Assembly: GCA_944377435.1 (NCBI GenBank)
Contig: CALWEY010000052.1
Coordinates: 1 to 55,107, forward strand
DNA length: 55,107 nucleotides
Direction: 5' to 3'
Source: an uncultured Clostridia bacterium
Lineage (GTDB): Bacteria > Bacillota > Clostridia > Christensenellales > UBA1242
The notes below the pieces were generated by a model. That model was given only the letters and a program-made list of their open reading frames with translations, ran no database searches and was not told where the DNA came from. The first letter of the stretch is position 1. Every line of letters begins with the position of its first letter. This document shows positions 7,592 to 52,633 of the stretch, one piece after another. Both the position numbers and the translations under genes were made by a program.

Positions 7592-7612
7592 TTTAAAGGT
7601 TAAAATATAATT

Positions 7613-8584: not shown

Positions 8585-8711
8585 AATAACATAATTCCAC
8601 AAATATCTATGCATAGAATATGCATTTTAAAAATATTAAATATAACATAACAATAAAAAAGAGCATAAAAAACATAACCTCAAAAAAGTTATACCTTATG
8701 TATCAACAAAG

Positions 8712-8902
8712 TTATGCACAACAGCATAAAAAATCAACACATTAAAACATATCAAAAATAGTTATAAACAAATAACATTATGTGGAAATGTGGATAACTT
8801 GTCAAATTTTATCCACTTTTAACCAAAATACGATAAAAATTTATAAATAAAGACCAAAATGAATAAATATGCAAATGTGGAAATGTGGATAACTTTTTCA
8901 CA
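8712..8902. promoter_or_regulatory. DnaA-box cluster in the 407-bp intergenic region upstream of mrnC-rlmB-sigH
   Basis: Perfect TTATNCACA matches: TTATGCACA at 8712-8720, and TGTGGATAA (= TTATCCACA on the minus strand) at 8789-8797 and 8884-8892. One-mismatch boxes: 8762-8770 (TTATAAACA), 8809-8817 (TTATCCACT) and 8894-8902 (TTTTTCACA). Confidence 0.6.
8780..8895 (+). repeat. Perfect 21-bp direct repeat ATGTGGAAATGTGGATAACTT (8780-8800 and 8875-8895)
   Basis: The two copies were read directly and are 95 bp apart start to start. Each carries a degenerate plus a perfect DnaA box in tandem. Confidence 0.9.
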
Positions 8903-26008: not shown

Positions 26009-26845
26009 ATGAGAATAGGAATTAGTGCGGATAGCACATGCGATTTGCCAAAAGAATTTGTAGAAAAATATGATATAAGAATAAATGCAATGCCTTTTTC
26101 GCTTGGAGAAAATGATTTAAGACATGACGGTGTTACAGGGACAAGCAAAGATGTTTTTGATTATGTTGAAAGAACAGGTAAACTTCCAACAACTTCGGCA
26201 TATAACGAGTATGAATACACGGAGCACTTTAATAAAATAAAAAAAGATTATGATGCAATTATACATTTTTCTTTTTCTTGGGAAATTTCTTCAACGGGAT
26301 TAAATGCTCGAAGAGCAAGTGAAAACATGGAAAATGTTTATACAATAGATACTCAAAATCTTTCTTGCGGAATATCTTTGTTAATTCTTGAATGTTGCGA
26401 ATTAAGAGAACAAGGACTTGGTGTTAAAGAGATTATAGACAGAATAGAAAAATTAAAATCAAAAGTGCAAACTTCATTTTTAATAGACACATTAAAATAT
26501 TTACACAAAGGCGGAAGATGTAGCAGTGTTGCTTTAATAGGTTCAAAAATATTAAGCATAAAACCACGAATAAGCGTTATAAATGGAAAAATGGAAGTAA
26601 CAAAAAAATATTTAGGAAACATAAATAGTTGTTTGTTAAAATATTGTGAGGATATTTTAAAAGAAGTTCCGGCAAATAAAAAGAGAGTCTTTGTTGCATA
26701 CTCATCACCACTTGATGCAAAAGACAAAATTGTTAAAAAGTTAAAAGATTATGGCTTTGAAGAAATAATTGAAGCACAAACCGGACCATCTATTTGTATA
26801 CATTGTGGTAAGGGAACACTTGGAATAATATACTTAACAAAATAA
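26009..26845 (+). CDS. DegV family fatty-acid-binding protein (copy 1)
   Basis: Typical DegV N-terminus (IGISADSTCDLPKEFVEKYDI..MPF), TSAYN, and the GGRCS loop. Confidence 0.85.
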   Translation: MRIGISADSTCDLPKEFVEKYDIRINAMPFSLGENDLRHDGVTGTSKDVFDYVERTGKLPTTSAYNEYEYTEHFNKIKKDYDAIIHFSFSWEISSTGLNARRASENMENVYTIDTQNLSCGISLLILECCELREQGLGVKEIIDRIEKLKSKVQTSFLIDTLKYLHKGGRCSSVALIGSKILSIKPRISVINGKMEVTKKYLGNINSCLLKYCEDILKEVPANKKRVFVAYSSPLDAKDKIVKKLKDYGFEEIIEAQTGPSICIHCGKGTLGIIYLTK

Positions 26846-26856
26846 GGAGAAGGTTT

Positions 26857-27693
26857 ATGAAAATTTGTATATCTTGCGATAGTACTTGTGATATTCCAAA
26901 AGATTTATTACAAAAGTACGACATTCATTTGATGCCAATAACAATAATGCTTGGCACAAAAGAACATCATGATGGAATTGATGTTACACCAGAAGATATT
27001 TTCAATTTTGTAGATAAAACTAATGAACTTCCAAAAACTTCTGCTGTAAATGTTTATGAATATACAGAATATTTTAAAAAACTTAGACAAGAATATGATG
27101 CAATAATTCATTTTTCGCTTTCGTTTGCAATATCTTCAACGGGAAACAACGCAAGACTCGCAAGTAATGATGTTGACAATGTCTATGTTATAGATACAAA
27201 AAGCTTGTCAAGTGGCTCTGGTCTTTTAGCTCTTTCATGTGTTGATAAAATTAAAGAAGGCAAAGATATTAAAACCATTGTAAAAGAACTAGAAGAAGAA
27301 GCAAACAAAGTACAAGCATCATTTCTTCTTGATACGCTACGCTTTTTGCATAAAGGCGGTAGGTGTTCTGGTATAGCTCTTCTTGGTGCAAATGTGTTAA
27401 AAATAAAACCAAGAATAAGTTTAGTAGATGGAAAAATGCAAGTTACAAAAAAATATCGTGGAAATATTGAAGATGCATTACTAAAATATGCAGATGACTT
27501 ATTAAAAGAAGTGCCACCAAACAAAAAAAGAGTTTTTGTAACTTATTCTAGTCCTGTTGAGCCTACAAGAACAAAACTTCTTGAAAAACTAAAAAATTAT
27601 GGATTTGAAGAGGTATTAGAAAGCAGTGCCTGTGCAACAATATGTACACATTGTGGAAGAAAAACTCTTGGAGTGTTATATATAGCAGAATAA
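26857..27693 (+). CDS. DegV family fatty-acid-binding protein (copy 2, tandem paralog)
   Basis: Same length (278 aa) and collinear with copy 1: ICISCDSTCDIPKDLLQKYDI, TSAVN, LHKGGRCSGIALLGA. I estimate roughly half the residues are identical by eye. Confidence 0.85.
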   Translation: MKICISCDSTCDIPKDLLQKYDIHLMPITIMLGTKEHHDGIDVTPEDIFNFVDKTNELPKTSAVNVYEYTEYFKKLRQEYDAIIHFSLSFAISSTGNNARLASNDVDNVYVIDTKSLSSGSGLLALSCVDKIKEGKDIKTIVKELEEEANKVQASFLLDTLRFLHKGGRCSGIALLGANVLKIKPRISLVDGKMQVTKKYRGNIEDALLKYADDLLKEVPPNKKRVFVTYSSPVEPTRTKLLEKLKNYGFEEVLESSACATICTHCGRKTLGVLYIAE

Positions 27694-31952: not shown

Positions 31953-32198
31953 TACAAAATATTTTAAATTTAACAAAATAAAAAAAATGCGTTTTTAGTA
32001 ATAGTATTTTGTTTATAAACCATTTTTTTATTTATTATATCCTATCTTTAAATTTTATTAAAAAAAACTTACAATTAATATTTTAGTTGTTGCTAGTTAA
32101 ATTTTCATTTATAGATCATTATTTTTAGGATTTTAATTATAAAAGGGTCAAATAAATTTAAACATTTACAAATTAGTTAATTTATAAAGGAGTTGTCT

Positions 32199-32657
32199 AT
32201 GGAAAAAACCAAAAACAAAAACATATATTTATGTTTATTTTTGGCTGTGATATTATTATTTTCTTGCGTTTTTTTGTTTACTGGGTGTGGTGATAATAAT
32301 GATACTTCAACAGATGGTGACACTGATACATCATCTGTAACAAGAATTCAACTTACAGTTAATAATATTTCTCGTTATTTGGGTATTAATTATAGTGTAG
32401 AAAAAACAAAGTATAATTCTAATACAATAGCAAATTATGTAAACCATGTGTATAGTGTTGAAACATATAGTCTTGGAGAATATCGCTTTGTAAACCTTGT
32501 GATTGAAATAGGTGTGACAGGAGCAAAAGATCAGAACAGAATCAGTGAAAATGGTTATGGTTCGTTTTTCTTCGTGAGAAATGGTCCGTTGCAACCTTTT
32601 ATGTCTCCAACAAGACCAGTTTTTAAAAGGGTGGTGTCTGGTTATGTTGAAGTTTAA
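32199..32657 (+). CDS. Lipoprotein, unknown function (152 aa)
   Basis: SD AAGGAG lies 6 nt before ATG 32199. Signal peptide with lipobox LFTGC followed by GDNNDTSTDGDTD. Confidence 0.65.
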   Translation: MEKTKNKNIYLCLFLAVILLFSCVFLFTGCGDNNDTSTDGDTDTSSVTRIQLTVNNISRYLGINYSVEKTKYNSNTIANYVNHVYSVETYSLGEYRFVNLVIEIGVTGAKDQNRISENGYGSFFFVRNGPLQPFMSPTRPVFKRVVSGYVEV

Positions 32658-33381
32658 AAATATAAAGAACATATTATTGATTTTGCCGTTATTTCTTTTT
32701 TCAATAATTTCTATGTATGGTTGCAATGAACAAAAATTCAACATTTCATTTTATTTAGATGGTGCATATTTAGAAACTCAAGAAACAAGTGATTATGTTA
32801 ATTATCCAAATTTTTTTGTTGCAGATGGAAATGTTATTGATGGTTGGTATTTAGATGTAAATTATTCTGAAAAGTTTAATTTTTCAAATAAAATTATGGA
32901 AGATATATCGTTATATGGTAGAAGTTTAACATATGTAGAAGCGTTTAGTAAATTGGTTAATCAAAGTGGCGAAGAAGTGTCAGATCATGAAGTTGGAGTA
33001 TCAAACGCAGGTGGTTTAGCAATTAAACTACTTGGGGGAACAGGAGTTATTAAAACAAATGGTTATTTAATTAATTATAATAATTCTATTTATATTTTAG
33101 AACATAATCGCGTTGATAAGTATAATCATTATGTTTTCATTTGGGATTTAAAAACGGGACAAGGTAGCATAACAATTGCCGAAATAGATACTTATAGAGT
33201 TCAATTTATGGCATTATTTAATTTAAGTTATGAAATGGACATAAAATCAATAGAAGATACAATTTTTTATGATACTCAAGTGTCAACGGATTACATTTAT
33301 AAAAATGGTATTGTAAAAACAAAAAAAGCCATACAGGAGTATTTAACTCAACTTGACGAATTAATAAGGATAAATTTTTGA
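32644..33381 (+). CDS. Lipoprotein, unknown function (245 aa)
   Basis: An internal start gives MLKFKNIKNILLILPLFLFSIISMYGCNEQ (lipobox SMYGC). It overlaps the upstream lipoprotein gene by 14 nt. Confidence 0.65.
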   Translation: MLKFKNIKNILLILPLFLFSIISMYGCNEQKFNISFYLDGAYLETQETSDYVNYPNFFVADGNVIDGWYLDVNYSEKFNFSNKIMEDISLYGRSLTYVEAFSKLVNQSGEEVSDHEVGVSNAGGLAIKLLGGTGVIKTNGYLINYNNSIYILEHNRVDKYNHYVFIWDLKTGQGSITIAEIDTYRVQFMALFNLSYEMDIKSIEDTIFYDTQVSTDYIYKNGIVKTKKAIQEYLTQLDELIRINF

Positions 33382-33425
33382 TTTTAAACATAATTAAAAA
33401 TTTGTAAATTATAGTTTAAAAAAAC

Positions 33426-33509
33426 AAAAAAAGAACTTTACTATTTGAAATGAAGCCCAAAAGTTAGACAACTTTAGGGTGTTCACTTCATTTTGTAGAG
33501 TTCTTTTTT
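33426..33509. terminator. Long three-segment hairpin flanked by A6/T6, acting as a bidirectional terminator between convergent genes
   Basis: Paired segments: GAACTTTAC/GTAGAGTTC, AAATGAAG/CTTCATTT, and CCCAAAAGTT/AACTTTAGGG around the loop AGAC. AAAAAA lies 5' and TTTTTT lies 3'. Confidence 0.6.
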
Positions 33510-33529
33510 ATGTAGCAATTAAATAAAAT

Positions 33530-33796
33530 TTAATCTTCGTTTTCTAATTCTTTTATAAAATCATTTATTACTTTTTTTGCGTCTTCATTATTTTCGTTTA
33601 TTGTGTCAATAAGTTCATATAACATAACAAGTTTTTCATGATTAACTGCTTTTTCATATTTAACAGACGCATCTATGTTTAGTGGATTGCCACACTTTGG
33701 ACAAAAATTTAATTTTAATGTTCCATCTTTTGAAACTTTTTGACCACAGCCTGCACAAGTTATGTTTTGACCGTCAGTTCTTATTCCTTCCATCAT
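33530..33796 (-). CDS. Small zinc-ribbon protein (88 aa) with an acidic C-terminal helix
   Basis: CAGC...(15 aa)...CPKC. ATGA start/stop overlap with the upstream gene. It is the last gene of the operon. Confidence 0.6.
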   Translation of the reverse strand: MMEGIRTDGQNITCAGCGQKVSKDGTLKLNFCPKCGNPLNIDASVKYEKAVNHEKLVMLYELIDTINENNEDAKKVINDFIKELENED

Positions 33797-35001
33797 ACTT
33801 TTTCTTCTCCCTTATTTTGTTTTTTGTTTTTTCTTTCATCAACAAATTCGATGTTTTTCTTATTTTCTTTTACTTTTATTTTTTCTTTTGCTTTGTGTAT
33901 TGAAGAAGTAATTTGTTTTGATGTTGACTTGGAAAGTTTTTCATTCATTTTTTCAAGTGATGCAGAAAGTTCGTTAAACAGTTCTATGTAACTATTGCTT
34001 TTGTTGTCTGCTATGACAGAACTGATATAATTTGATGAATCTATTTTTGTTGGGTGAGGATATCTGTAATCAACTCTATCAGCACGAACAAAATTGTTTT
34101 TGTCCATCATAATCTTAAACCAGTCATTATTTAAAGTATAAGCTCCAACTTTTGGTCTTTTTTCATTTGTTTTATCATATTCATACATTCCGCCAAAGGC
34201 AATAAACCAGCATGGTTTTGTTGTTGTTTTTCCGTCTTTATTTACATAAGTTGTAAGTCCGCAAGAATACCAATTTGTTTTGCTTGTTGTACAAAAATAA
34301 ATATCGTGACCAGGATTGTTGTTTGCAAATTTTTGCATTGAAATTGCAAGTGAACGAACTGTATTAATTTTTTCATTATAATGAAGGAGTGAAACTTGCT
34401 TTGATTTTTGATTGCTTAAATTTAATGTAAGATGGAAGCCGGCATTTACAAGTTTGTTTTTCATGTCCATCATGTTGGCAAGTTTCGCCATTAGATCGGG
34501 ACCACCATTGTCTATTATTTCTTTTTCTTTTAAACCTCTAACTAAAATAATTTTGTCTTTTATACTATTCAATTTTTTGTAAGCATAAGCAAGTTGTTCT
34601 TTGTATGGTAATGTGTCCTCGTTATTTCCTGTTGTAACTCTTGTAAAGATATCTGAAACAATAACAACAGGGTTTGTTGCGTTTTTAATTTGTTCAATTA
34701 TGTAGTCTAACCATTTTTCATTCATTGCACATTTATATGAAGCAGGATATTTAACTCTTTTTCCATCTGGTAAAAGTTTGTATGCTTTTCCCAAATTTAA
34801 TTCACACAAGCCGTTAAGTCCAACATCTTTGCTATAAACTTTAAGTGCAATTGTCTTTTGAGTTTGTTCTTCTTTTGATTCTTCAATTTCTAAGTCTATA
34901 TCCTTTAAAGTGTTCTCATCAAAAGGTTGGTCAATTTCTTCTTTTAATTTAATTTTTTTACCTATGGCATCTAATGCTCTCTTGCCATTATCTGTACTCA
35001 T
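33793..35001 (-). CDS. Degenerate (probably non-catalytic) paralog of the upstream metallophosphoesterase
   Basis: Collinear with gene 1, but the metal-ligand motifs are replaced: VVIVSDIFT vs LIGIGDMMN, ILVRGLKEKE vs VWIHSGNHERR, LLHYNE vs VTHHGD, FCTTSKT vs IGHKHT. FIAFGGMYEY vs LPAFGGGQYGY is retained. SD AAGGAG. The N-terminus is acidic and the C-terminus is Lys-rich. Confidence 0.5.
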   Translation of the reverse strand: MSTDNGKRALDAIGKKIKLKEEIDQPFDENTLKDIDLEIEESKEEQTQKTIALKVYSKDVGLNGLCELNLGKAYKLLPDGKRVKYPASYKCAMNEKWLDYIIEQIKNATNPVVIVSDIFTRVTTGNNEDTLPYKEQLAYAYKKLNSIKDKIILVRGLKEKEIIDNGGPDLMAKLANMMDMKNKLVNAGFHLTLNLSNQKSKQVSLLHYNEKINTVRSLAISMQKFANNNPGHDIYFCTTSKTNWYSCGLTTYVNKDGKTTTKPCWFIAFGGMYEYDKTNEKRPKVGAYTLNNDWFKIMMDKNNFVRADRVDYRYPHPTKIDSSNYISSVIADNKSNSYIELFNELSASLEKMNEKLSKSTSKQITSSIHKAKEKIKVKENKKNIEFVDERKNKKQNKGEEKV

Positions 35002-35011
35002 CTAATACTCC

Positions 35012-36172
35012 TTAATCTTTATTATAGTACCAATCGTTGCTTTCTATTTTTTGTGGACTATTTGTTTTGTTATTTGTTTTCTTCTTGCTTTCGGCATCTT
35101 CTAAAATAAGTTTAACAATTTTTGACTTAATTTCGTTGTCCATCTCTAAACCTGTTTTTTCTAAAATTTCTACAATTTCTAGAAATTTTCCGTATATTAT
35201 AGGTTTAATATTTTGAATGTTTTTATCTATAATTTTTACACTTTCCTTAACGCATTTATCTTTAAGTGAATATGTTCCACTTGAAAGAATTGGAATAGAT
35301 TTTGTAACTGTTACCAAAGGTGGTTGCATATTATAAGGATTCTTTTTATCGTAGAGTGGATTTAGTGCAGTTGTAATTTCAAGGGCATAGTATGGACATT
35401 TGCAGATTGGCTTTAATCCTTTTTCATAACCATACTGACCACCACCAAAAGCAGGGAGTACTATGTTTAATTCATCTTTTCTTACACGCTTTCCGTTTTT
35501 GTCTATAATTACTTTAGATTTGATAAAAGACTGGAAAGTATGTTTATGTCCAATTGCATTTATCAAAGATTCTTGGTTAATAGACGCGTTGTTTTCTGGA
35601 TTGCCACTATCTCCGTGATGCGTTACAAGATTAAATGTGTGTCTTTTTGATTTTGTGTAAGGACATTTTAATGTAATTGTTGTGTCGGCAAAACATGGGG
35701 CATAAGTTTTTGGAATTCCAAGTGCTTGTGTTGCTTGTTCAACAGGGTTTATACCTGTATTTTTATCTATTCTTCTTTCGTGATTTCCTGAATGTATCCA
35801 AACAACTTTATCTTGTTTTGCAACTTGTTTTAAAAGCGAAACAAAAACATTTAATTGTTCTTGTGGATAGGCAATATCCTCAAACATGTTGCTCACAGAA
35901 TTTAAAATTGCGGTGTTCATCATGTCTCCTATACCAATAAGTTTTGCATTAGGAGTTTGAAGAACATAGTCTAAAACTTTCATTGCTTCATCAATATCAA
36001 AATCGACAGAACCAATGTGCCAATCGCCTATAAATACAAGGACAACTGTGTCGTACTTATTTGATAAGTCAACATTGCAGGTTTTTACTCCGTAATCACT
36101 TGAAGATGTTTGTTTTTGACGATAAGAATTTATATTATCATCATTTTTAACTTTGTTTAAAATTTCTGGCAT
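35012..36172 (-). CDS. Calcineurin-like metallophosphoesterase (SbcD/Mre11-like motif set), 386 aa
   Basis: All five motifs are present in order: GDWHIG, GIGDMMN, GNHE, THHG, GHKH. The start at ATG 36172 has SD GAGGTG. The track ORF start at 36208 lies upstream of the promoter -10. Confidence 0.75.
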   Translation of the reverse strand: MPEILNKVKNDDNINSYRQKQTSSSDYGVKTCNVDLSNKYDTVVLVFIGDWHIGSVDFDIDEAMKVLDYVLQTPNAKLIGIGDMMNTAILNSVSNMFEDIAYPQEQLNVFVSLLKQVAKQDKVVWIHSGNHERRIDKNTGINPVEQATQALGIPKTYAPCFADTTITLKCPYTKSKRHTFNLVTHHGDSGNPENNASINQESLINAIGHKHTFQSFIKSKVIIDKNGKRVRKDELNIVLPAFGGGQYGYEKGLKPICKCPYYALEITTALNPLYDKKNPYNMQPPLVTVTKSIPILSSGTYSLKDKCVKESVKIIDKNIQNIKPIIYGKFLEIVEILEKTGLEMDNEIKSKIVKLILEDAESKKKTNNKTNSPQKIESNDWYYNKD

Positions 36173-36194
36173 ATTCACCTCAATAATCACTGTC

Positions 36195-36224
36195 ATTATA
36201 ACATTCAAAATTAACCAATGTCAA
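36195..36224 (-). promoter_or_regulatory. Near-consensus sigma-A promoter of the metallophosphoesterase operon
   Basis: On the minus strand: TTGACA (36224-36219), an 18-nt spacer ending in TGT, then TATAAT (36200-36195). Confidence 0.65.
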
Positions 36225-36338
36225 TACAAGATTGTCGAAAAAGAAGCGATGACCATAGTTAAAATTTTGTGCTCTACAACATATAGAAAACTTGAAAAAT
36301 TTATTACATTATATTGAAAAAATAAAAAAATGTTTATT

Positions 36339-36371
36339 AAAAAAAACAAGACTGCATGTCTTGTTTTTTTT
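36339..36371. terminator. Intrinsic terminator downstream of mscS, isolating it from the next operon
   Basis: AACAAGAC-tgcat-GTCTTGTT, flanked by A- and T-runs. Confidence 0.75.
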
Positions 36372-37422
36372 ATTTTTTTGAATTTTTCTTTTCTAATTTT
36401 GCTTTCTTTTCGTTGGCTTTTGTTTCTTTTAGTTTTTGCTTTTCTTGTTTATGTATAAGTTTTTTCTCTTTAGTTTTTTTAGATAGTTTATAAAGCATTA
36501 TGTCTATTGCATCGCCAGAAATATTTTCAACTGGTTTTACAGCAAGTTCTTCATTTCTCTTTTCCATAGGTGCCTTGTTGTATGGCATTTCTACTATATC
36601 GTTTCTGAGCCTTACTTCCATTTGGTCAAATGGAATAGAAATGTTGTTTCGTTTAAATTCGTTAAATACATTTTCCATAACAAAATAATAAACATCCCAA
36701 TAATCATTAGATAAACACCAACAATTTGCTGTAAATGTTATTGCACTAGAATCTAATGTTTTTAATGCGCAAAATGGGGCAGGATCTAAAAGAACCTTGT
36801 TGCAATTTTTCATTACATCTAAAACAATTTTCTTTACTTGCTCAACATCGCTTGCATAATCTACACCAAAGCTAAAAACTACTTTTCTTGTGGTATTAGC
36901 ACTATAATTTATAAGTGAACTTTCTACCACTTTTGAATTTGGTATGCTGATTACCTTGTTGTCTGTTGTTGCAATAATTGTGTGAAGCATTTTTATTTCT
37001 TTAACAGTTCCTTCAATGCTGTCTATTGCAATGTAGTCGCCTTCTTTAAATGGGTGAGTGCCGATAATTACAACTCCGTTAGCAAGGTTAGACAAACTTC
37101 CTTGCATTGCAAGAGAAATTGCAAGACCTGCTGCCGATAGTATTGCAATGAATCCTGTTATTGGTATTCCAACAAACTGACAAATTCCAAGAAGCAATAA
37201 CATATACAAACAAAATTTTAAAACGCTAAGCAAAAATTTGTATGTAACTTTTGACATTTTAGATTTTGCAAAAATTTTTTTAAGAAGCCCTATTACAATT
37301 TTTATAACAATATATCCAGCTATAAAAATGCCAATAACTTCTAATAATTTAATGCCAACAGTTTTTATAATATCAAGTGTCTGTTGACCAAGTGCTTGCC
37401 AATCAACTAATAAATTATTCAT
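36370..37422 (-). CDS. mscS: Small-conductance mechanosensitive channel (MscS family)
   Basis: Three TM helices, then the conserved beta-domain block PFKEGDYIAIDSIEGTVKEIKMLHTIIATTDNKVISIPNSKV. The tail is Lys-rich. Confidence 0.85.
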   Translation of the reverse strand: MNNLLVDWQALGQQTLDIIKTVGIKLLEVIGIFIAGYIVIKIVIGLLKKIFAKSKMSKVTYKFLLSVLKFCLYMLLLLGICQFVGIPITGFIAILSAAGLAISLAMQGSLSNLANGVVIIGTHPFKEGDYIAIDSIEGTVKEIKMLHTIIATTDNKVISIPNSKVVESSLINYSANTTRKVVFSFGVDYASDVEQVKKIVLDVMKNCNKVLLDPAPFCALKTLDSSAITFTANCWCLSNDYWDVYYFVMENVFNEFKRNNISIPFDQMEVRLRNDIVEMPYNKAPMEKRNEELAVKPVENISGDAIDIMLYKLSKKTKEKKLIHKQEKQKLKETKANEKKAKLEKKNSKK

Positions 37423-40820: not shown

Positions 40821-40851
40821 AAAAAAAGAACACAGGAAAGTGTTCTTTTTT
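40821..40851. terminator. Bidirectional terminator between the mazG-like and rel-like genes
   Basis: AGAACAC-aggaaa-GTGTTCT, flanked by A7 and T6. Confidence 0.75.
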
Positions 40852-42316
40852 AATTGTATTTTTTTTCAAAATATTTTATTAAAACTCTTTGTGTGTTTTC
40901 GTTTTTGCAATAGGCAAGCCATCTGAGTTCGGCGATATTTACATTTAGTCCATTTTTATCAAGTTCGCAAACAACTTCAACTTTATCGCCGTTGTTAAGT
41001 CTTGTGTATATTGGAGATTTATTAGGGGAATCGTTAATAAAAGCATATTTACAACTAAAACCAATATCATTATGAAGTTTAAAGGCAAAATCAAGCACTG
41101 TGCTATGTGATGGTATTTTAATTTTTTGTTTTGTAGGAGTTAAAACTGTTATATAGTTTGTAACAACTCCACTTGCCATTGTTTCGTCAATTATGTCTAC
41201 ATCTGTTCCAACAATTGTGCCGTTTTGTATTTCGGTAAAATGAGGTCTAGACATACATGCAATACTGAATAAATTTCTTATGTTGTCTTTTACAACTAAA
41301 TAACTATTGTTAAAGGTGTCGTAACTTAAATTTATTGCTTTTAATTTTTGTGATAAGTTGGTGTTAATAAGCATGTCGTAAAGAAGCTCCATATAATTTT
41401 TGGTTTGCTCTTTTTCATTAAGAACAATGTATATGTTATAAGTTGGAACACTTATGAAATTGCTTTCTTTAATTTTTGTAAGTTTGCTTATTTCAAAGTG
41501 TGATGTTATGCTGTTGTAAATTTCTAGTTGTGTTTTTGGTTCTATTATAACCTTATACAAAGATATATTAGCTTTTAGTGATTTAAGATATACATCAACT
41601 TCTCTTTCAATTTCTTCTTTTAGTTGCATTAAATAGTTTTTAGTGTTTTTAATGTATCTATTGTAAAAGTATATAAAATCTTTATTTTCTTCTTCTGTTG
41701 AAATTAAAAAACATTCGTTTCTTATGTTGTCATAAAAATATTTAGTCTTTAAAAGTTTTGCAAGTGGTATTATCCATTTTCTTGTTTCGTTTACTTTTGC
41801 TTCTTTTTTGTATTTAGGAAAAATTCCAATTGTTTGCAAATTATTTAATCGGTCGGCGAATTTTATATAAAATCCAAACTTATTATTTTTTCCAATTGAA
41901 ATTAGTTTTTGATATGTCCTGTCTTCCATTGCTTGTTTTAAAAAGTCATCTGTGTTTGAAAAAAGGTTTTCATTATCGGGCATAAAATTTTCTTTTGTTA
42001 TTGCTGTAACTGCATCGACAATTTCTGCAATTTGTTTATTAAATGTTTTTTCTATTTCTTTTATGGTAACTCCGCAATCTTCTACTGTATCGTGTAGTAG
42101 GGCACTACAAATTACATCGGTGTTAAAATCAAGATGCTCTAAAATATAGGCAACTTGAACAGGGTGCAAAATATAGGGCTCGCCACTTTTTCTAAATTGA
42201 TTTTCATGTTTTTGTTTTGCAAAGTTATAGGCTTTGATTACATTTGAAATATCTAAACTGTTTTTTTGTCGTAAGTTGTTTAGAATTTCGTTAAATATTG
42301 TTTCATAATTATTCAT
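40850..42316 (-). CDS. RelA/SpoT homolog with an intact HD (p)ppGpp hydrolase domain, a degenerate synthetase-like region and a TGS domain, but no ACT/RRM C-terminus
   Basis: HD motifs are present: RKSGEPYILHP, LLHDTVED, KFADRLNNLQT. TGS domain: ITVLTPTKQKIKIPSHSTVLDFAFKLHNDIGFSCKYAFIN...LNNGDKVEVV. The synthetase signatures (RxKxxxSxxxK, DYIxxPKxNGYxSxH, EVQIRT) are not conserved. The start at ATG 42316 overlaps the upstream stop (ATGAATAA). Confidence 0.8.
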   Translation of the reverse strand: MNNYETIFNEILNNLRQKNSLDISNVIKAYNFAKQKHENQFRKSGEPYILHPVQVAYILEHLDFNTDVICSALLHDTVEDCGVTIKEIEKTFNKQIAEIVDAVTAITKENFMPDNENLFSNTDDFLKQAMEDRTYQKLISIGKNNKFGFYIKFADRLNNLQTIGIFPKYKKEAKVNETRKWIIPLAKLLKTKYFYDNIRNECFLISTEEENKDFIYFYNRYIKNTKNYLMQLKEEIEREVDVYLKSLKANISLYKVIIEPKTQLEIYNSITSHFEISKLTKIKESNFISVPTYNIYIVLNEKEQTKNYMELLYDMLINTNLSQKLKAINLSYDTFNNSYLVVKDNIRNLFSIACMSRPHFTEIQNGTIVGTDVDIIDETMASGVVTNYITVLTPTKQKIKIPSHSTVLDFAFKLHNDIGFSCKYAFINDSPNKSPIYTRLNNGDKVEVVCELDKNGLNVNIAELRWLAYCKNENTQRVLIKYFEKKYN

Positions 42317-43283
42317 AGTCGGCGTCCTTAATAAGTCTATAATAGTTATCGTCTTCCATGTTGCTAACTTTTGCAAATCTAAACATGTTGGAATCCACGG
42401 CGTCGCTAATTATGTTTTGAACGCTATCTTCCACAATTCGTTTTTGTTGAAACTCGTTAAGTCCCGATTTTGTTGGGCTTAAATATAGTCGTTTAATTAA
42501 ATTTATTAAATCTGTAATTTCGTTTTTTACATTTACTTCTGCAATATCTAAGGCTAAAAGGTTATAAATTTCCCCGTCTGGAATGTTAAAGGCTATGCTT
42601 GAAAATATAATATATTGAATACAAGGAACATGTTCTCTGCCACGGGAGATAGAGTTTACTGTTCCTAGTCCGCCAATATATTTTTTATTAGATGGTGGAT
42701 TGTTTAAAATTATTAAACATTTATCGTTGTTATTTTTTAAACTTACAAAAATTTGTGTTTGGTTTTGTTCTAAATTTCCCCAATAGTAGTTTTCAAACTG
42801 TGTATAAAATTCATTTATTTTTTGAATATCTCCATCATAAGAGTTTAATGTTTTTAAATATTCTTCGGCTTTTTCTCTTGGAACCATAAAAAGTCCATAA
42901 GACTTTAACCCCCTTGGAGATGAAAAATCAACATCGTTTACAACCGAAATAATTCCAAAGGTCAAAATGTCATAGTTATAACTTCCAACTTTTCCTTTAT
43001 ATGCGCTGGAATTGTAGTAATATACAATATAATTTCCAATAAATTTTGTGTAGTTTTCGTTGTTTGAAATGTTTAAACTGTTTTTGTCGATTTCAGAAAC
43101 TAAAAATTGGTCGATGTCAATTTTATATGCCTTTTTTAATTGTAATAAAAATATTATTGACGGCATGCTTTTTCCGCTTAAATAATTTGCAATGCTACTT
43201 GCGGAAAAACCTGTTTTTTCTGCTACATCTTTTTGCGTATAAAGGTCTGTTAAATATTTTAAATTTTTTATAAATGTTTCCAT
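42309..43283 (-). CDS. XRE-family HTH protein with a roughly 250-aa uncharacterised C-terminal domain
   Basis: The N-terminus YTQKDVAEKTGFSASSIANYLSGKSMPSIIFLLQLKKAYKIDIDQFL is a classic HTH_3. I do not recognise the rest. SD AAGGAGG. Confidence 0.7.
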   Translation of the reverse strand: METFIKNLKYLTDLYTQKDVAEKTGFSASSIANYLSGKSMPSIIFLLQLKKAYKIDIDQFLVSEIDKNSLNISNNENYTKFIGNYIVYYYNSSAYKGKVGSYNYDILTFGIISVVNDVDFSSPRGLKSYGLFMVPREKAEEYLKTLNSYDGDIQKINEFYTQFENYYWGNLEQNQTQIFVSLKNNNDKCLIILNNPPSNKKYIGGLGTVNSISRGREHVPCIQYIIFSSIAFNIPDGEIYNLLALDIAEVNVKNEITDLINLIKRLYLSPTKSGLNEFQQKRIVEDSVQNIISDAVDSNMFRFAKVSNMEDDNYYRLIKDADYE

Positions 43284-46032: not shown

Positions 46033-49000
46033 ATGGCTGTAAAGATTATTGTAGGACAAAAATTAAATTGTGTTAGTGAAGAGGTTATTAGGTCTATTGA
46101 CGAAAATAGGCAAGATTTTTCGTGTGATAATATTGTTATAGTTCCTGATAGATTTTCAATGGTTGCCGAAAAACTTATTTTTGAAATTTTAAATATAAAG
46201 GCAACATTCAATATTCATGTAATGGGAATAAATAAACTTGCAAAAAAAATTATTGATGATGCTTTGCTTAATTGCGTTTATGTTGATAGTGTTGAAAGTA
46301 CTTTTATTTTGTATAGGGCAATTCAAAAAGCAAAAAACAATTTTTTATGTTTTTCAAAAAATATAAGTCAAGGGCTTTTAGAAAAAATAAAAAATGCACT
46401 TTCACTAATTAGGTCAAGTGATGTAACAGTTAATGATTTAAGACAAAACTTAAATTTTGTTGATGAAAATCAAAAATCAAAGATGCAGGATATTTTGTCT
46501 GTTTATGAAGAATATGAAAAACTTTTAGATGGAAAATTAGACGCAACAACTGTATTAAAAACTTTTAATGCTTTAATTGATACATCATTACAACTAAAAA
46601 ACACAAATATATATTTTTGTGGTTTTGATAGTTTTACAAAACAAGGATATGAAATAATTAAAAAAATATCAAAATGTTGTAAAAATTTAATTGTGGGAGT
46701 TTTGCACTCTTCTAATAATTCAAATGCAAATATATTTGACAACGAAATGTATGATGAACTTACATCATTTTTTAATGATAATAAAATTGAATTTACTGTA
46801 ACAAACATAAAACAAAATTTATCTTATGAACAAGATTTAATATTTAAAAATGTTTTTGGTTATAACATACAGAAAAAACAAAATTTCAACTATGCAAAAG
46901 TGGTAGAAATGCCATCTAAGCAAGATGAAATTGAAAATGTTGCAAAGCGTATTTGTTATTTAGTAAAAAATAAACAATGCAAATTTAGTGATATAAATAT
47001 AGCCACAAACAGCAGTTATTTTGATGATATAGAAAACATTTTTAACGAATATAACATTTCTTATTATATTGATAAAAACACAAATTTTTTACAAATACCT
47101 CTAACAAATTTTATAAAATATGCCTTTGATGTTTGCCTAGAAAATTATAGTCAAGAAAGCATAATCAATTTTTTAAGTAATTATTTTTGCAATATAGAAA
47201 AACTTGAAAAAGACAATATAGAAAATTTTATATTAGAAAATAACATTGAATATAAAAAGTTTAATAAACTAATGGAAAATTATCCATTGTTGCAATTAAA
47301 TAAACTTCAAGACTTTGTAAATCAACTAAAAAGCGAGGGTACAGTTTCTTATTATATCGAACAAGTTAAAAATCTTTTAGAAAGTTTTGAAATTCCTAGT
47401 CAGATAGAAAATCTATGTGAAGAATTTAACAAAAACAATGATTTAAAAAATGAAAAAATATATGTTCAAGTGTGGGATAAAATAACATCTTTAAATGAGA
47501 AATTTATAAACATATTAAATGACGAACCAATAAATGTAACAGATTTTTATGAACTTTACTTAAATGCATTAGGAAATATAAACATTTCGCAAATACCGTT
47601 AAATTTAGATTGTGTTTATGTTGGCGATAGTTCTTCAAGCTTTTTTGAAACAAAAAACTATATGTTTGTCCTTGGAGCAAATCAAGATGTTCTACCAATA
47701 ACAATAAAAGATTTAGGGCTTATAAGCGACAAGGAAATAGAAAATTTGTCACAAAAATTAAAAATATCTCCAACAGTAAAAATGATAAATAGACGAAATA
47801 GATTTAAACTTTTTGATATTTTAAGCGATGCTAAACAAAATTTATTTGTTTATTATCGTTTAACAGATGATGATGGACAAAAAATGTTGCCGGCAAAATT
47901 TGTTACAGATATTTTAAGGTTGGGTGCAAACAAATTTAATATAGCATATTTTGAAGAAAATTTTGCCGATGATAATGTTTTAGAAAAAATAAAATTCAAT
48001 AATCCATATACATTTGTGGCACTTAAAAATATCTCAAAAAACAGTGCCATAAGTCCCGTTTTAAAAACTGCCTTGCAAAAATTGGGTGAGTTTAAAGAAT
48101 TTAATTTTGTAAACAAAGAAAAAGTTATATCTGGTAAAGATATGTTAAACTTTAATAAAACAAAAATAAGTCAAATAGAAAGTTACTATGAATGTCCGTT
48201 TAAGCACTTTGCAAGATATGGAATAAAACTTGTAGAAAAAAAGGACGGAGCAATTAAACCAAATGATTTTGGTAATTTTTTGCACGAATTTTGTAAATAT
48301 TTTGTTGATTATATAAAAGAAAATAAAATTGAAAAAGACAACCAAGTATCAAGTGTTGTAGATAAAGTTTTCAACAAACTTTTAAACAAAACGGAGTATT
48401 CATATTTTAACGATAAAGAGAATTTATACACAAAAGAAATTTTGTACAATGAAGTTAAAAGATTTGCTGTTTTTGTAAGCTACGAACAAAAAATAAGCAA
48501 TTTTAAAATTTTTAAAACAGAATTTAAATTTGGCGACAAATTAGACGATTTAAGTGTTTATGTAGATAATGAAAAATATAGTATAGTTGGAATTGTTGAT
48601 AGAATAGATATGTGTGATGATAATTTTAGAATAATAGACTATAAAACAGGTTCACTAGCAAGTTCAAATGCTAAAATTGAAAACTTATATAATGGTACAA
48701 AAATTCAGGTTTATGTTTATTTAAAAGCCATAGCCAACAAATTTAATCTTAAACCTTTTGGTGCATTTTATTTGCCAATAAACAACTCATATTTAGATAC
48801 AAAACAAGATGAGTACAAAATGCAAGGTTATTTTATTGATGATATAAACTTAATTGAAAAAGCCGATACTTCGCTAAGTTTTGAAAACAATAAAAGTAAA
48901 TTGTTTGAAGTGCAGTATTCCCTAAACAAAAAATATGTTCAAGACAACATTAAAAAACTTGTATATAGTAAAAATGTTACAAAAGAAGAAATGCACGCAA

Positions 49001-49200
49001 TGGTTGAATATTCAATAAAGATTGTTGAACAGGCAATAAAAGAAATATTAGATGGGAATACGCAAATTTCACCAATAGAAGATAGTTGTAAATTCTGTGA
49101 ATATAAATCTATTTGCGGGGTTGACGAAAGTGGAAAAGTAGCACGACAAATAGATGCTAAAATAAGTCCTAAAACATTTTTGGGAGAAAACAATGAGTAA
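46033..49200 (+). CDS. addB: ATP-dependent helicase/deoxyribonuclease subunit B
   Basis: 1055 aa, immediately upstream of and overlapping addA. It has a C-terminal RecB-type nuclease with Fe-S cysteines (YYECPFKHF ... CKFCEYKSIC) and the nuclease motif IVDRIDM...IIDYKTG. Confidence 0.9.
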   Translation: MAVKIIVGQKLNCVSEEVIRSIDENRQDFSCDNIVIVPDRFSMVAEKLIFEILNIKATFNIHVMGINKLAKKIIDDALLNCVYVDSVESTFILYRAIQKAKNNFLCFSKNISQGLLEKIKNALSLIRSSDVTVNDLRQNLNFVDENQKSKMQDILSVYEEYEKLLDGKLDATTVLKTFNALIDTSLQLKNTNIYFCGFDSFTKQGYEIIKKISKCCKNLIVGVLHSSNNSNANIFDNEMYDELTSFFNDNKIEFTVTNIKQNLSYEQDLIFKNVFGYNIQKKQNFNYAKVVEMPSKQDEIENVAKRICYLVKNKQCKFSDINIATNSSYFDDIENIFNEYNISYYIDKNTNFLQIPLTNFIKYAFDVCLENYSQESIINFLSNYFCNIEKLEKDNIENFILENNIEYKKFNKLMENYPLLQLNKLQDFVNQLKSEGTVSYYIEQVKNLLESFEIPSQIENLCEEFNKNNDLKNEKIYVQVWDKITSLNEKFINILNDEPINVTDFYELYLNALGNINISQIPLNLDCVYVGDSSSSFFETKNYMFVLGANQDVLPITIKDLGLISDKEIENLSQKLKISPTVKMINRRNRFKLFDILSDAKQNLFVYYRLTDDDGQKMLPAKFVTDILRLGANKFNIAYFEENFADDNVLEKIKFNNPYTFVALKNISKNSAISPVLKTALQKLGEFKEFNFVNKEKVISGKDMLNFNKTKISQIESYYECPFKHFARYGIKLVEKKDGAIKPNDFGNFLHEFCKYFVDYIKENKIEKDNQVSSVVDKVFNKLLNKTEYSYFNDKENLYTKEILYNEVKRFAVFVSYEQKISNFKIFKTEFKFGDKLDDLSVYVDNEKYSIVGIVDRIDMCDDNFRIIDYKTGSLASSNAKIENLYNGTKIQVYVYLKAIANKFNLKPFGAFYLPINNSYLDTKQDEYKMQGYFIDDINLIEKADTSLSFENNKSKLFEVQYSLNKKYVQDNIKKLVYSKNVTKEEMHAMVEYSIKIVEQAIKEILDGNTQISPIEDSCKFCEYKSICGVDESGKVARQIDAKISPKTFLGENNE

Positions 49201-52200
49201 GGAAGTTTTTGAAAAGATACAAGAGCAGGAAGATGTTCTTTCTTCCTACAATAAAAATATTGTTGTTTCAGCTTCTGCGGGAAGCGGAAAAACTTCTGTC
49301 ATGATTAGAAAAATTGTAGATTTAATATTAAACAAAGGTGTACATGTAAAAGAACTTTTAGTGTTAACATATACAAACGCAGCTGCAAGTGAAATGAAAC
49401 AAAAACTTATAGATTACATGAGTGAGCAGGCACAAAATAACAAACAACTTTTAGACGAAATGGAAGATGTAAGTCTTGCAGATATTTCAACAGTTGATAG
49501 TTTTTGTCAAAAAATTGTAAAAAGATATTTTTATGCTATAGATATTGATCCCGGATTTAACATTATTCAAGGAAGTTTGCAAAAACAAATTCAATTAAAG
49601 GCATTAAAAAAAGCACTTGATATATACAAAGAAAAAAACAGTGAAAAATATTTCAATTTGTTTGATATTTACGCAAAAAACAGAACAGACAAAAACATTA
49701 TAAACTTAATTATGAAATTGTATGACTATTCCTGTTCCATTTTAAATTATGAGGGATGGAAAAGTAAATCACTGGAATTATTCAAAAATCAACAAGCAGG
49801 CACAATACTTTACAACAAGTATGTTCAAATAATAGATTCAATTTATAATAAATTTAATAAATTTTTAAACCAATCATCTCAATTGGAGTTTAAAAAATAT
49901 TGTGAACAGTTAAATCAAAACCTTTCACAAATAGAATTGTTAAAAAAAGCCAAAGATTTTGCCGATTTAATAGAAGTTGCACAAAATATAGAATTAAAAT
50001 CTGTGCCACAAAAAGAAGATAGAGATGTTGGGTTGCAACCAAAAATAAAACAAACAAAAGAATATTTAACGGATGTGTTAAACGAAATAAAAAGATACGA
50101 GAGTAAAAAAATATATTTAAATTCTATTGAAGCGTGCGAATATACAACACATACAATTTTTGAAATATGCGATATATTTATAAAAGAGTACAACAAAATA
50201 AAAAAACAAAAAAATGTTTATGATTATAATGATATTGAAAGGTTAACAATTAAACTTTTTGAAAATGAAGATATATTAAACACGGTTAAAAGTTCTTATA
50301 AAAATATTTTTATAGATGAATTTCAAGACGCAAATCTGGTGCAAGAAAAAATAATAACAAGTTTAAAAAACGGAAATAATTTGTTTTTTGTTGGCGATTT
50401 AAAACAAGCTATTTATGGGTTTAGACAATCCAACTCTAAAATATTTGAACGAATTTGCAAAGATTTCGACCAGGACGCAAAAACCAATGGCAATTCGCAA
50501 GCTTTATACTTAAATTGCAATTTTAGAACAACTTCTAAAATACTGTTGTTTATAAATCAAATATTTTCTGTTATTATGACAGAAAATACGGCGGGATTAA
50601 ACTATAAAGATAAAGCAAAATTAGTCCCAAAAGCAAAATATCAAAACGAAAAAACTCCATGTGTAGAACTAAATATTTTATATAAAGATGAAAAAGAAGA
50701 AAGGGAATTGCCCGAAGTTTATAGCGTTTTAAATCAAAACAATAACCAAGATGTGAAAGATGGCGTAATTGAAGCAAACTTTGTTGCAGAAAAAATTACA
50801 AGTTTATTAAATGAAGAAATATTCGATATAAAATTGGGAAAATATCGCAAAGTTAAATATAGCGATATTGCAGTTTTGTTTAGGAAAAGGACAACTCAAA
50901 ACGATTTCGTTTCCGCATTAAATGAGTTTAATATTCCAACGCAAGAAAATTCTAACAAAGATTTAGAGCAAACTTATGATGTTATGGTTTTAATAAACTT
51001 ATTAAAAATTGCCTCTAATTTTAATGATGATTATTCTCTTGCAAGTGTAATGATGTCCGATATTTTTTGTTTTGATGTTGATGAAATGCTTGAAATAAGA
51101 AATAATGGTAATTATAAATATTTCTATGAGTGTGTAAAAAACTACAATAAAAATGACGAAATAACACAAAAAATTTGTAAAATGATGCAAATTTTAAGTA
51201 ATTTTACAAATATTTTAACATTTAGCGGAATAAATAAAGCACTTTTATATGTTGTTAAAGAACAAAATTATGAATATAAATTGTCTAATTATTTAAACGG
51301 GTATGCACGAATAAAAAATGTAAAAGACTATATAAATTCTTTCAATAATTCAAACTTTAATTTTAGTGTAAGTGAATATCTAAACTTTTTAAAACAAAGT
51401 ACTCGTGAGCAAAAAGTTGCATCTGGAGTTGTAAGTCAAGATGTTGTAACTTTAACAACAATGCATGCAAGCAAGGGGCTTGAATGGCCAATTGTTATAA
51501 TTCCAAATTTAAATTCAAACTTTAACAGAGCACCAAACGAAAGTGAAATTGCATTAAATGAAGAACTAGGTGTGGGAGTTAAATATTATGATAGAACTTT
51601 AAGGAAAAAACACGAGAGTGTGTTTTATGATTTAGTAAAAAATCAAAATAAAGAAAGTGAGTTTAGCGAAAAAATAAGATTGTTGTATGTGGCACTAACA
51701 AGAGCAAAAAACAAACTTATATTAGTTGGAACAAAAGAAAAATTAAACTTTTATAAATACGAAGATGAAAGACAAATAAAATCATCGCAATCATATTTAG
51801 ATTTTATAGTTAATTCGTTTGGAGAAGAAGATATACAAAAAATATTAAATAAACAAAGTTTTAATATATATAACGATGAACAATATTTATGCAACATGTT
51901 AAATGGAAATTGTTATATTACAAACTCAGAAAGCAAAAATGTAAACATCTTTAAAACTAATCTTGATGAGCGCAATGTTAAAGAGTTAGAAGAATATATA
52001 AGAGAAGATTATTTTAACAGAGAAGCAACAAAAAAGGCACAAAAGAATTCTGTTTCAAAAATTATGCAAGAAGATGGTTATTCAAGTTATAATACTGCAC
52101 CTAAAAATTTGGATATAGCAGAACATTTAAACGACATTGATAAAAATGAAATTGGTTCTGCCTATCATAAGGTTTTAGAAATGATAGATTTTAATTCAAG

Positions 52201-52633
52201 TTGTGGCGCTTATAATATAAAAGAAATTATAAATAATCTGGAAAAGGAACAATTATTCAAAAAAGAAGTTTTAAACTTACTTGATGTCAATTTAATACAA
52301 AAAAATGTAGAACTGTTATCCAAAATGTCAAATGGTAACATTGTTTTAAAAGAACACAGTTTTATAATGCAGTTGCCTTATAATGAAGTTCAACAAAGTT
52401 CTGTTGATGATAAAATTTTAATTCAAGGAATATGCGATCTCATTATTATAAAAGAAAATAGTGCTGTATTAGTGGATTATAAATACAGTGATTTAAGCGA
52501 ACAAAATCTTTTAAATAAATATAACAAACAAATATCGCTCTATAAAAAAGCAATAGAGTATGGTTTAAATAAAAAAGTAGAAAGTGCTTTCATATTAAGT
52601 ATAAAGAAAGCTAAACTTTTAGAGTGCAAATAG
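49193..52633 (+). CDS. addA: ATP-dependent helicase/nuclease subunit A
   Basis: UvrD-type helicase motifs (ASAGSGKTS, FIDEFQDAN, FFVGDLKQAIYGFR, TMHASKGLEWP, LLYVALTRAK) and a C-terminal RecB nuclease (GICDLIIIK...VDYKYS). Confidence 0.9.
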   Translation: MSKEVFEKIQEQEDVLSSYNKNIVVSASAGSGKTSVMIRKIVDLILNKGVHVKELLVLTYTNAAASEMKQKLIDYMSEQAQNNKQLLDEMEDVSLADISTVDSFCQKIVKRYFYAIDIDPGFNIIQGSLQKQIQLKALKKALDIYKEKNSEKYFNLFDIYAKNRTDKNIINLIMKLYDYSCSILNYEGWKSKSLELFKNQQAGTILYNKYVQIIDSIYNKFNKFLNQSSQLEFKKYCEQLNQNLSQIELLKKAKDFADLIEVAQNIELKSVPQKEDRDVGLQPKIKQTKEYLTDVLNEIKRYESKKIYLNSIEACEYTTHTIFEICDIFIKEYNKIKKQKNVYDYNDIERLTIKLFENEDILNTVKSSYKNIFIDEFQDANLVQEKIITSLKNGNNLFFVGDLKQAIYGFRQSNSKIFERICKDFDQDAKTNGNSQALYLNCNFRTTSKILLFINQIFSVIMTENTAGLNYKDKAKLVPKAKYQNEKTPCVELNILYKDEKEERELPEVYSVLNQNNNQDVKDGVIEANFVAEKITSLLNEEIFDIKLGKYRKVKYSDIAVLFRKRTTQNDFVSALNEFNIPTQENSNKDLEQTYDVMVLINLLKIASNFNDDYSLASVMMSDIFCFDVDEMLEIRNNGNYKYFYECVKNYNKNDEITQKICKMMQILSNFTNILTFSGINKALLYVVKEQNYEYKLSNYLNGYARIKNVKDYINSFNNSNFNFSVSEYLNFLKQSTREQKVASGVVSQDVVTLTTMHASKGLEWPIVIIPNLNSNFNRAPNESEIALNEELGVGVKYYDRTLRKKHESVFYDLVKNQNKESEFSEKIRLLYVALTRAKNKLILVGTKEKLNFYKYEDERQIKSSQSYLDFIVNSFGEEDIQKILNKQSFNIYNDEQYLCNMLNGNCYITNSESKNVNIFKTNLDERNVKELEEYIREDYFNREATKKAQKNSVSKIMQEDGYSSYNTAPKNLDIAEHLNDIDKNEIGSAYHKVLEMIDFNSSCGAYNIKEIINNLEKEQLFKKEVLNLLDVNLIQKNVELLSKMSNGNIVLKEHSFIMQLPYNEVQQSSVDDKILIQGICDLIIIKENSAVLVDYKYSDLSEQNLLNKYNKQISLYKKAIEYGLNKKVESAFILSIKKAKLLECK

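Follow-up and report, generated by a model that had tools for sequence, protein, structure and literature searches.

We analyzed a 55,107-nucleotide (nt) stretch of DNA from an uncultured Clostridia bacterium (contig CALWEY010000052.1 of assembly GCA_944377435.1; hereafter the window), which carries on its minus strand, at positions 33530-36224, an operon of three open reading frames (ORFs) in the order gene 1, gene 2, gene 3. Gene 1 (35012-36172) encodes a predicted active metallophosphoesterase subunit of 386 amino acids (aa), gene 2 (33793-35001) a catalytically dead 402-aa paralog of gene 1, and gene 3 (33530-33796) an 88-aa zinc-ribbon protein with an acidic helical tail. The ORF of gene 1 as called mechanically begins at TTG 36208, and we took ATG 36172 as its start because homologs begin with MPEILNK and the arrangement GAGGTG-N4-ATG is conserved. 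The GAGGTG (36176-36181, minus strand), read from the sequence as the Shine-Dalgarno element of gene 1, is unchanged in four close relatives, and so is the ATG. The stop codon of gene 1 is separated from the ATG of gene 2 by a 10-nt gap (GGAGTATTAG) with a good Shine-Dalgarno element (GGAG), and the gene 2 stop and gene 3 start overlap in an ATGA at 33793-33796. Downstream, between the trio and a convergent plus-strand ORF that ends at 33381, lies a long hairpin assigned to neither strand (about 33424-33513; minimum free energy -32 kcal/mol, z = -6.26), a likely bidirectional terminator that is flanked by runs of A and T and that none of 200 shuffled sequences equaled in stability. The initial annotation had described the promoter, Shine-Dalgarno element, 10-nt gap, ATGA overlap and terminator hairpin in the same terms, and our analysis agrees with it on each of them, as well as on the view that the operon is a self-contained and tightly coupled unit.

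The predicted promoter (36195-36224, minus strand) is of the sigma-A/sigma-70 type, with TTGACA, an 18-nt spacer and a TG-extended TATAAT, and is the single match to all 12 of 12 consensus positions between 33200 and 36500. Promoter-like sites as a whole are not in excess in this interval (19 found versus 16.2 expected from shuffles), so the weight of the prediction rests on the quality of this one site. It is kept in the close relatives L007, L008 and L009 (homologous loci are referred to by L numbers and individual proteins by P numbers), and a near-consensus TTGACA-17/18-TATAAT lies directly 5' of gene 1 both in the window and in L001, L004, L005, L013-L018, L025 and L031. A strong predicted sigma-A-type promoter before gene 1 is thus common to nearly all lineages. 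No LexA/Cheo box was found 5' of gene 1 in 18 loci, giving no evidence for SOS control, and an Rfam scan of the whole window matched no RNA family, and thus no riboswitch or leader. Together, these predicted signals argue for strong, constitutive expression rather than induction by damage or phage. Two further features lie in the 161-nt region between gene 1 and the neighboring mscS ORF (36370-37422). One is a second terminator-like hairpin (36338-36372), which overlaps the final 3 nt of mscS; the scan assigns it to the plus strand, although the stem is almost perfectly palindromic and has A/T runs on either side. The other is a set of short blocks 5' of the promoter (about 36230-36330, minus strand; for example TTCTATATGTTGTA and CTTCTTTTTCGACAAT) that are kept among close relatives, and that could be operator sites or could merely reflect slow divergence of this intergenic region.

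Gene 1 carries all five motifs of the calcineurin-like metallophosphoesterase superfamily (PF00149 clan), as the initial annotation had noted: GDWHIG (residues 49-54), GIGDMMN (80-86), GNHE (129-132), THHG (184-187) and GHKH (208-211). Across 24 homologs, D50, H52, D83, N130, H131, H185, H186 and H211 are invariant and H209 is nearly so. The Pfam Metallophos model recognizes gene 1 by a narrow margin (21.8 bits versus a cut-off of 21.5) and matches just 3 of the 24 family members, and a PDB sequence search with the gene 1 profile returned nothing even at E <= 1. In the AlphaFold model (mean predicted local distance difference test score, pLDDT, 76), an N-terminal helix is followed by the catalytic core (about residues 39-295), two long helices toward the C-terminus (302-361) and a disordered tail with a conserved P..K...WY motif. 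The top Foldseek matches of the gene 1 and gene 2 models were phosphoesterase-fold proteins only, which places both in the two-sheet beta-sandwich fold of the superfamily; among PDB entries, gene 1 matched LpxH (E 1e-4), PolD DP1 (E 2e-4) and Mre11 (E 2.4e-2).

The closest relatives of gene 1 outside the trio are phage proteins. Gene 1 matches PHROG 7339 at E 5.5e-30, with residues 11-234 aligned to profile positions 2-217 of 263, which we count as a full-length match; PHROG 7339 is defined by clustering rather than by function, and its label 'DNA repair exonuclease' was assigned by similarity only. Members of this family, found in Bacillus phages Slash, Stahl and Edson and in Marinitoga phage MPV1, have the same core with all five motifs as gene 1 and share with it a loop after motif II, S....F(E/D)D...P.EQ. 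Identity to gene 1 is 24-30% over most of the core and reaches 40% in shorter stretches. Among the viral structure models of BFVD, the matches to gene 1 were likewise uncharacterised phage phosphoesterases (E 2e-17, template modeling (TM) score 0.56-0.71). These results, together with tblastn matches to phages, establish the phage ancestry of the gene 1 fold. In contrast to gene 1, the PHROG 7339 proteins are about 250-290 aa long and are encoded by lone phage genes without a dead paralog, a zinc-ribbon partner or long helical extensions, whereas the trio genes are chromosomal and vertically inherited.

The genomic settings of these phage relatives vary. In a viral contig (L022, IMGVR_UViG_3300025669_000107), two active paralogs (2311-3129 and 7968-8720) flank an intein-containing family B DNA polymerase gene and a primase-like gene, which may set a precedent among viruses for phosphoesterases in pairs, in this case with linkage to a polymerase. 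Other members lie just 5' of terminase/portal genes (L034, 780-1556; Edson, L021, 3977-4852; Slash, L020, 3986-4759) or by a Mu-F-like head gene (L026, 4773-5534), and one protein (P0098) is a fusion of a helix-turn-helix (HTH) domain to a PHROG 7339-type phosphoesterase. The genes flanking the Edson phosphoesterase were considered as possible gene 2 analogs and proved unrelated when tested.

These relationships bear on what kind of enzyme gene 1 may encode. The initial annotation had placed it closest to SbcD/Mre11-type nucleases, an assignment that finds no support: there is no Mre11/SbcD sequence match, Foldseek ranks LpxH and PolD DP1 before Mre11, and the nearest relatives are phage proteins. 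Membership of that family fails on three counts, namely the SbcC/Rad50 partner (as judged from the flanks), family similarity and the capping domain. Searches of Pfam, NCBIfam and PDB sequences gave neither SbcD/Mre11 family similarity nor a capping/DNA-binding domain (Mre11_DNA_bind, SbcD_C), and no SbcC/Rad50-like ATPase gene adjoins the trio, either in the window or in the other loci retrieved, where the search covered the flanks; on the missing ATPase the initial annotation was right. LpxH (UDP-2,3-diacylglucosamine pyrophosphatase), a nucleotide-sugar pyrophosphatase, is the top PDB fold match of gene 1, and the Joint Genome Institute (JGI) pipeline automatically annotated one gene 1 homolog as LpxH. 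The two proteins share 11-12% identity at a TM score of 0.3-0.5, with no family-level sequence match; moreover, LpxH acts as a single subunit, unlike the multi-subunit assembly that we propose for the trio, and Bacillota hosts would not be expected to make lipid A. It is also conceivable, though quite improbable, that gene 1 encodes a protein (Ser/Thr/Tyr/His) phosphatase similar to that of phage lambda, with genes 2 and 3 providing targeting subunits. Its motifs III (GNHE) and I (GDxHxG) resemble those of the phosphoprotein phosphatase (PPP) family, PP5 is among the weaker Foldseek matches (E ~2e-3), and several phage relatives close the early region, immediately ahead of the late genes, which is also the position of lambda NinI. 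In gene 1, however, the PPP hallmark GDxVDRG is replaced by GDMMNTA, which lacks the DRG, no Pfam or NCBIfam phosphatase family was matched, and the fold match to PP5 is weak (TM ~0.2).

Gene 2 is a collinear paralog of gene 1 without the metal ligands, as had been proposed from the sequence; profile alignment, cross-matching, profile searches and structure models all agree. The two families align by hhalign at E 3.7e-4 over 176 columns, with the ligands of motifs III and V replaced in gene 2 (N130 to L, H131 to K and H211 to I), and a tblastn search with gene 1 as query matched gene 2 of L031-L033 at E ~3e-4. A gene 2 profile run against 1.84 billion representatives pulled out active phosphoesterases of 250-275 aa. 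The AlphaFold model of gene 2 (pLDDT 75) matches Mre11, Vps29, Pol delta p50, SMPDL3A and PolD DP1, with Mre11 of T. maritima as the top PDB match (E 8e-6). Motif I of gene 2 appears to be degenerate as well; the global hhalign of the two proteins is unreliable at the N-terminus for mapping this motif, and we infer from predicted secondary structure that GDWHIG of gene 1 corresponds to CELNLG of gene 2. Gene 2 nevertheless does not behave as a decaying copy: it is as conserved as gene 1, and its 39 invariant columns in 24 homologs concentrate in the loops that match the former active-site motifs, from which we conclude that it is a functional pseudoenzyme. Its layout comprises an N-terminal helix, a basic core (net charge +14), a 57-residue C-terminal helix and a K-rich tail ending in a GEEK-like motif. 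The Pfam scan assigned gene 2 to no family and returned nothing consistent across the 24 members, and matches to DUF3990 and Flocculin in the family scans were dismissed as noise. Similarity of gene 2 to PHROG 7339 reached E 0.013 only. Far more divergent dead proteins resembling gene 2 occur in public metagenomes (P0124, P0126, P0127-P0129, P0130, P0134 and P0136); in these lineages motif III reads RGTEE, PGAVER or DGTEE instead.

The third protein is, as initially annotated, an 88-aa CxxC...CxxC zinc ribbon with an acidic tail. Its four cysteines (C14xxC17...C32xxC35, the second pair within CPxCG) and the acidic helical tail that follows are kept in 13 further aligned loci, and Pfam gave sub-threshold zinc-ribbon matches only. 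One locus (L037) has an additional 84-aa Zn_ribbon_2 gene (7594-7848) directly after gene 3. Since a hydrophobic segment was found in none of the three proteins, all are likely cytoplasmic.

The three genes are conserved together. At gene 1 identities from 99% down to 35%, the trio is complete and in the same order wherever the contig allowed this to be checked, with gene 3 always 3' of gene 2, except in L025. The initial annotation had named a lack of such co-conservation as grounds for rejecting its reading, and our survey found the genes co-conserved. A gene 1 profile searched against 5.8 billion proteins recovered about 60 clusters at E <= 1e-84; the next matches, the first of the short phage-type enzymes, came only at E 2e-19. 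With gene 2, an HMMER search run exhaustively over the 1.84 billion representatives gave 33 proteins at E <= 1e-3, 8 of them at E <= 1e-30. Carriers of gene 1 make up 12 of 185,579 species-representative genomes, all of them metagenome-assembled genomes (MAGs) of uncultured low-GC Clostridia labeled as Christensenella sp., Clostridia bacterium or Candidatus Caccopulliclostridium; the trio loci, too, all stem from MAGs of such Clostridia. In line with the initial annotation, searches of Pfam, NCBIfam, PADLOC and PDB sequences yielded no named system for the trio, and public records label its genes merely as 'metallophosphoesterase' or 'hypothetical'.

The trio lies in an ordinary stretch of chromosome. 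Apart from it, the window encodes a CCA-adding enzyme, phosphoglucomutase, UvrC, SpoIIE, GlmS, a P-type ATPase, DnaX-YbaB-RecR, two lipoprotein-like ORFs, MscS, NrdG, NrdD, an HTH protein, a Rel-like protein and AddB/AddA, and the trio itself is flanked by dnaX-ybaB-recR on one side and mscS-nrdG-nrdD on the other. The order mscS-trio-recR/ybaB/dnaX recurs in L008, L009, L027 and L035 (56% identity), and L011 (66% identity) has trio-recR/ybaB/dnaX on a contig that begins at gene 1, so that the mscS side lies beyond it. Two lipoprotein-like ORFs of 154 and 266 aa (32193-33381, plus strand), one with a weak match to a Listeria-Bacteroides repeat, separate recR from the trio in just three cases (the window, L008 and L009); since L011, L027 and L035 have the trio without them, these ORFs, and not the trio, are the variable insert. 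In further lineages the trio is found by glmS (L001), near dnaA/dnaN (L004), by mscL (L005), by spoIIP/prfA (L023), after radC and divergent from ruvCAB (L031, L037), and with a RecD2 or UvrD-like helicase on one side and an HTH/Rel-like pair on the other (L013-L018, L038). The divergence of the trio tracks that of its neighbors: in a distant lineage its identity is 36-46% versus 38-45% for the Rel-like protein, and in L011 it is 62-73% versus 79-89% for RecR/DnaX, which fits vertical descent at a moderately fast rate. The GC content at the trio is native, without anomaly. The initial annotation had suggested that the operon sits in an accessory insertion; the core-gene flanks, the synteny that persists to 56% identity, the parallel divergence and the unremarkable composition speak against this.

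Other genes of the window call for brief mention. Canonical enzymes of double-strand-break end processing and of excision repair are encoded alongside the trio, namely AddB/AddA (46033-52633, plus strand) and UvrC (4307-6112, plus strand). Two tandem 278-aa paralogs lie at 26009-26845 and 26857-27693 (plus strand); a 278-aa gene at the syntenic position in L035 belongs to the DegV family according to precomputed Pfam assignments.

The chromosomal setting also bears on the proposal, put forward by the initial annotation as an example, that the operon serves anti-phage defense. Under this explanation the trio would be a defense or conflict module in which a phage-derived nuclease is restrained by the dead paralog and the zinc-ribbon partner. 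The phage-type catalytic domain, the self-contained unit with its own promoter and terminator, and the differing chromosomal sites across deep lineages would all fit. Yet genes 1 and 2 matched nothing in PADLOC-DB v2, the two matches of gene 3 were at chance level (E 0.04-0.07), and no integrase, transposase, restriction, other defense or mobile-element genes stand beside the trio in the window or in the inspected loci. Within lineages the position is stable down to 56% identity, with divergence like that of housekeeping neighbors and native composition. Relatives of gene 2 were found in none of 50,697 phage records and 72,556 plasmid records, and none was seen in IMG/VR by a pattern-seeded scan, whose short peptide patterns may miss distant relatives. 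Scans of viral contigs with two distant dead-paralog groups (A4 and A6) also found no relatives, with the same caveat for short patterns. The plasmids carried no copy of the trio and two distant gene 1-like metallophosphoesterases (25-30% identity). The trio thus shows neither a match to a known defense component nor a variable island, and we consider a defense role highly improbable. It is kept by a small group of uncultured low-GC gut Clostridia on the core chromosome, which is unlike an anti-phage defense system.

What, then, might the trio do? We propose that its three genes give rise to one constitutively expressed cytoplasmic enzyme complex. A stoichiometric complex had been suggested in the initial annotation because of the tight coupling. 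The translational coupling of the genes and their matching helical extensions suggest such an assembly: both large proteins consist of an N-terminal helix, a phosphoesterase core and a helix of 57-60 residues, and the helical tail of gene 3 matches this architecture. Gene 1 would be the catalytic, binuclear-metal phosphoesterase of the complex, and gene 2 a non-catalytic partner that may bind substrate or act as a scaffold through its conserved, basic, remodeled pocket. The two would pair via their cores and long helices, and gene 3 would probably use its helical tail to dock onto the long helices at the C-termini of both large subunits. In evolutionary terms, a short phage phosphoesterase (about 250 aa) may have been duplicated, extended and fixed on the chromosome of a clade of uncultured low-GC Clostridia, where, passed on vertically, it would have a housekeeping role. 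As substrate, a nucleic-acid end or another DNA or RNA phosphodiester would be most likely, with the complex working as a nuclease or end-processing enzyme beside replication and recombination. Our preferred explanation as a whole, a constitutive complex of active subunit, pseudoenzyme and zinc ribbon that derives from a phage enzyme and cuts phosphodiester bonds at nucleic-acid ends, is tentative, and we put its chances somewhat short of even.

We lean toward nucleic acid because several observations point in this direction: DNA-gene neighbors of the trio, phage relatives that lie by polymerase B/primase or terminase/portal genes, the HTH fusion, the fold matches to DP1, p50 and Mre11, and the basic core of gene 2. 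DNA-related neighbors occur in three of about eight independent contexts, with recR (L011, L027, L035), RecD2 (L017, L018) and radC with ruvCAB (L031, L037), an enrichment of p ~0.04 by a rough, post hoc binomial estimate. Several points weigh against this explanation. The neighborhood enrichment is marginal and post hoc, and other contexts involve glmS, mscL and spoIIP/prfA. No sequence or structure match assigns a substrate, and the best PDB matches of gene 1 are weak (E ~1e-4, TM 0.3-0.5) and led by LpxH. The positive charge of gene 2 carries little weight, since the proteomes of AT-rich genomes are generally lysine-rich. The contexts of the phage relatives are inconsistent as well: the MPV1 relative lies between tail-fiber and holin/endolysin genes, and that of Slash is followed by an endolysin gene. 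In L025 (4135-6727), the most divergent of the trio loci, genes 1 and 2 are present without gene 3. Finally, in L017 and L018 a Rel-like gene with HD and TGS domains begins 9 nt after the gene 3 stop, with its own GGAG, forming a four-gene operon.

This last arrangement favors the main competing explanation, according to which the complex would be a nucleotide or alarmone phosphohydrolase acting on (p)ppGpp-related compounds, dinucleoside polyphosphates of the Ap4A type or cyclic nucleotides, in a pathway with the Rel-like hydrolase, and the dead paralog would bind a ligand as its regulatory subunit. The Rel/SpoT-like protein (480-508 aa) is encoded at 40850-42376 (minus strand) in the window, with the corresponding stretches at 8591-10030 in L017 and 6347-8794 in L013. 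Its intact HD hydrolase and TGS domains align to Rel structures, whereas the synthetase region does not, so that the hydrolase motif is kept without an alignable synthetase domain. The Rel-like gene is preceded by a gene for a 324-aa HTH protein (42309-43283, minus strand), and the two genes keep synteny with the trio in distant lineages: in L013, L014, L016 and L038 the trio, the HTH gene and the Rel-like gene lie on one strand, and in the window the pair is about 5 kb upstream of the trio on the same strand. A role in nucleotide metabolism would also agree with LpxH, a pyrophosphatase, as the top PDB fold match of gene 1, and with the many metallophosphoesterases that act on nucleotides, such as ApaH and CpdA/Rv0805. 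However, the match to LpxH is weak, no Rel-like gene lies within 8 kb of the trio in L001, L004, L005, L023 or L031, and the linkage elsewhere may be explained by shared gene-order ancestry, because these loci share other neighbors too. Two large subunits with helices of about 60 residues and a zinc ribbon would moreover be unusual for a small-molecule hydrolase. We therefore regard an alarmone or nucleotide substrate as unlikely, though a serious contender, and neither its evidence nor that for a nucleic-acid substrate is decisive.

Our proposal of a complex that acts on nucleic-acid ends can be set beside characterized systems. Mre11-Rad50 (SbcCD) likewise has a binuclear metallophosphoesterase nuclease in which two phosphoesterase-fold subunits dimerize, and it likewise combines long helical elements with a CxxC zinc site in one complex. 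Unlike the Mre11 homodimer, the trio dimer would consist of one active and one dead subunit, and this enzyme/pseudoenzyme pair would take the place of the Mre11 homodimer and the Rad50 ATPase. The same fold occurs in an active state in PolD DP1 and in an inactivated state in polymerase B-subunits such as Pol delta p50, as it does in both states within the trio, and these proteins dock the phosphoesterase fold onto a zinc-binding module in a manner that may be likened to the trio with gene 3. PolD DP1 and Pol delta p50 are among the top PDB matches of genes 1 and 2 (E 2e-4, TM ~0.35). Family membership is not indicated: the NCBIfam DP1 model NF003118 scores 19.8 bits versus a cut-off of 445, no polymerase gene was found beside the trio, and no N-terminal OB (oligonucleotide/oligosaccharide-binding) domain was detected. 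Pairs of an enzyme and a pseudoenzyme with this fold are known in replication, both eukaryotic and archaeal (polymerase B-subunits), and in trafficking (Vps29). Our literature searches found no described system of a phosphoesterase with an inactive paralog and a zinc ribbon, and nothing relevant on a phage anti-defense phosphoesterase of such a type. Neither the databases nor these searches turned up a bacterial operon that conserves an active subunit together with its dead paralog and a zinc ribbon, and, as far as we could find, no bacterial operon with a phosphoesterase-fold enzyme/pseudoenzyme pair has so far been described.

At its boldest, and with rather poor odds, the trio may represent an undescribed nucleic-acid machine, a heterotrimer of active subunit, pseudoenzyme and zinc-ribbon clamp that was domesticated from phage and would act, independently of an ATPase, as a nuclease on DNA or RNA ends that is essential throughout a clade of gut Clostridia with reduced genomes, or else, equally novel, an alarmone-degrading enzyme wired to a Rel homolog without synthetase. 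The operon is invisible to Pfam, NCBIfam and PADLOC, yet a deep clade of uncultured gut bacteria maintains it, with a near-consensus promoter in front. In practical terms the finding would have modest impact before a phenotype or an activity is established. Once its substrate is known, the trio would give a function to conserved dark matter in common gut MAGs and also to the widespread phage family PHROG 7339.

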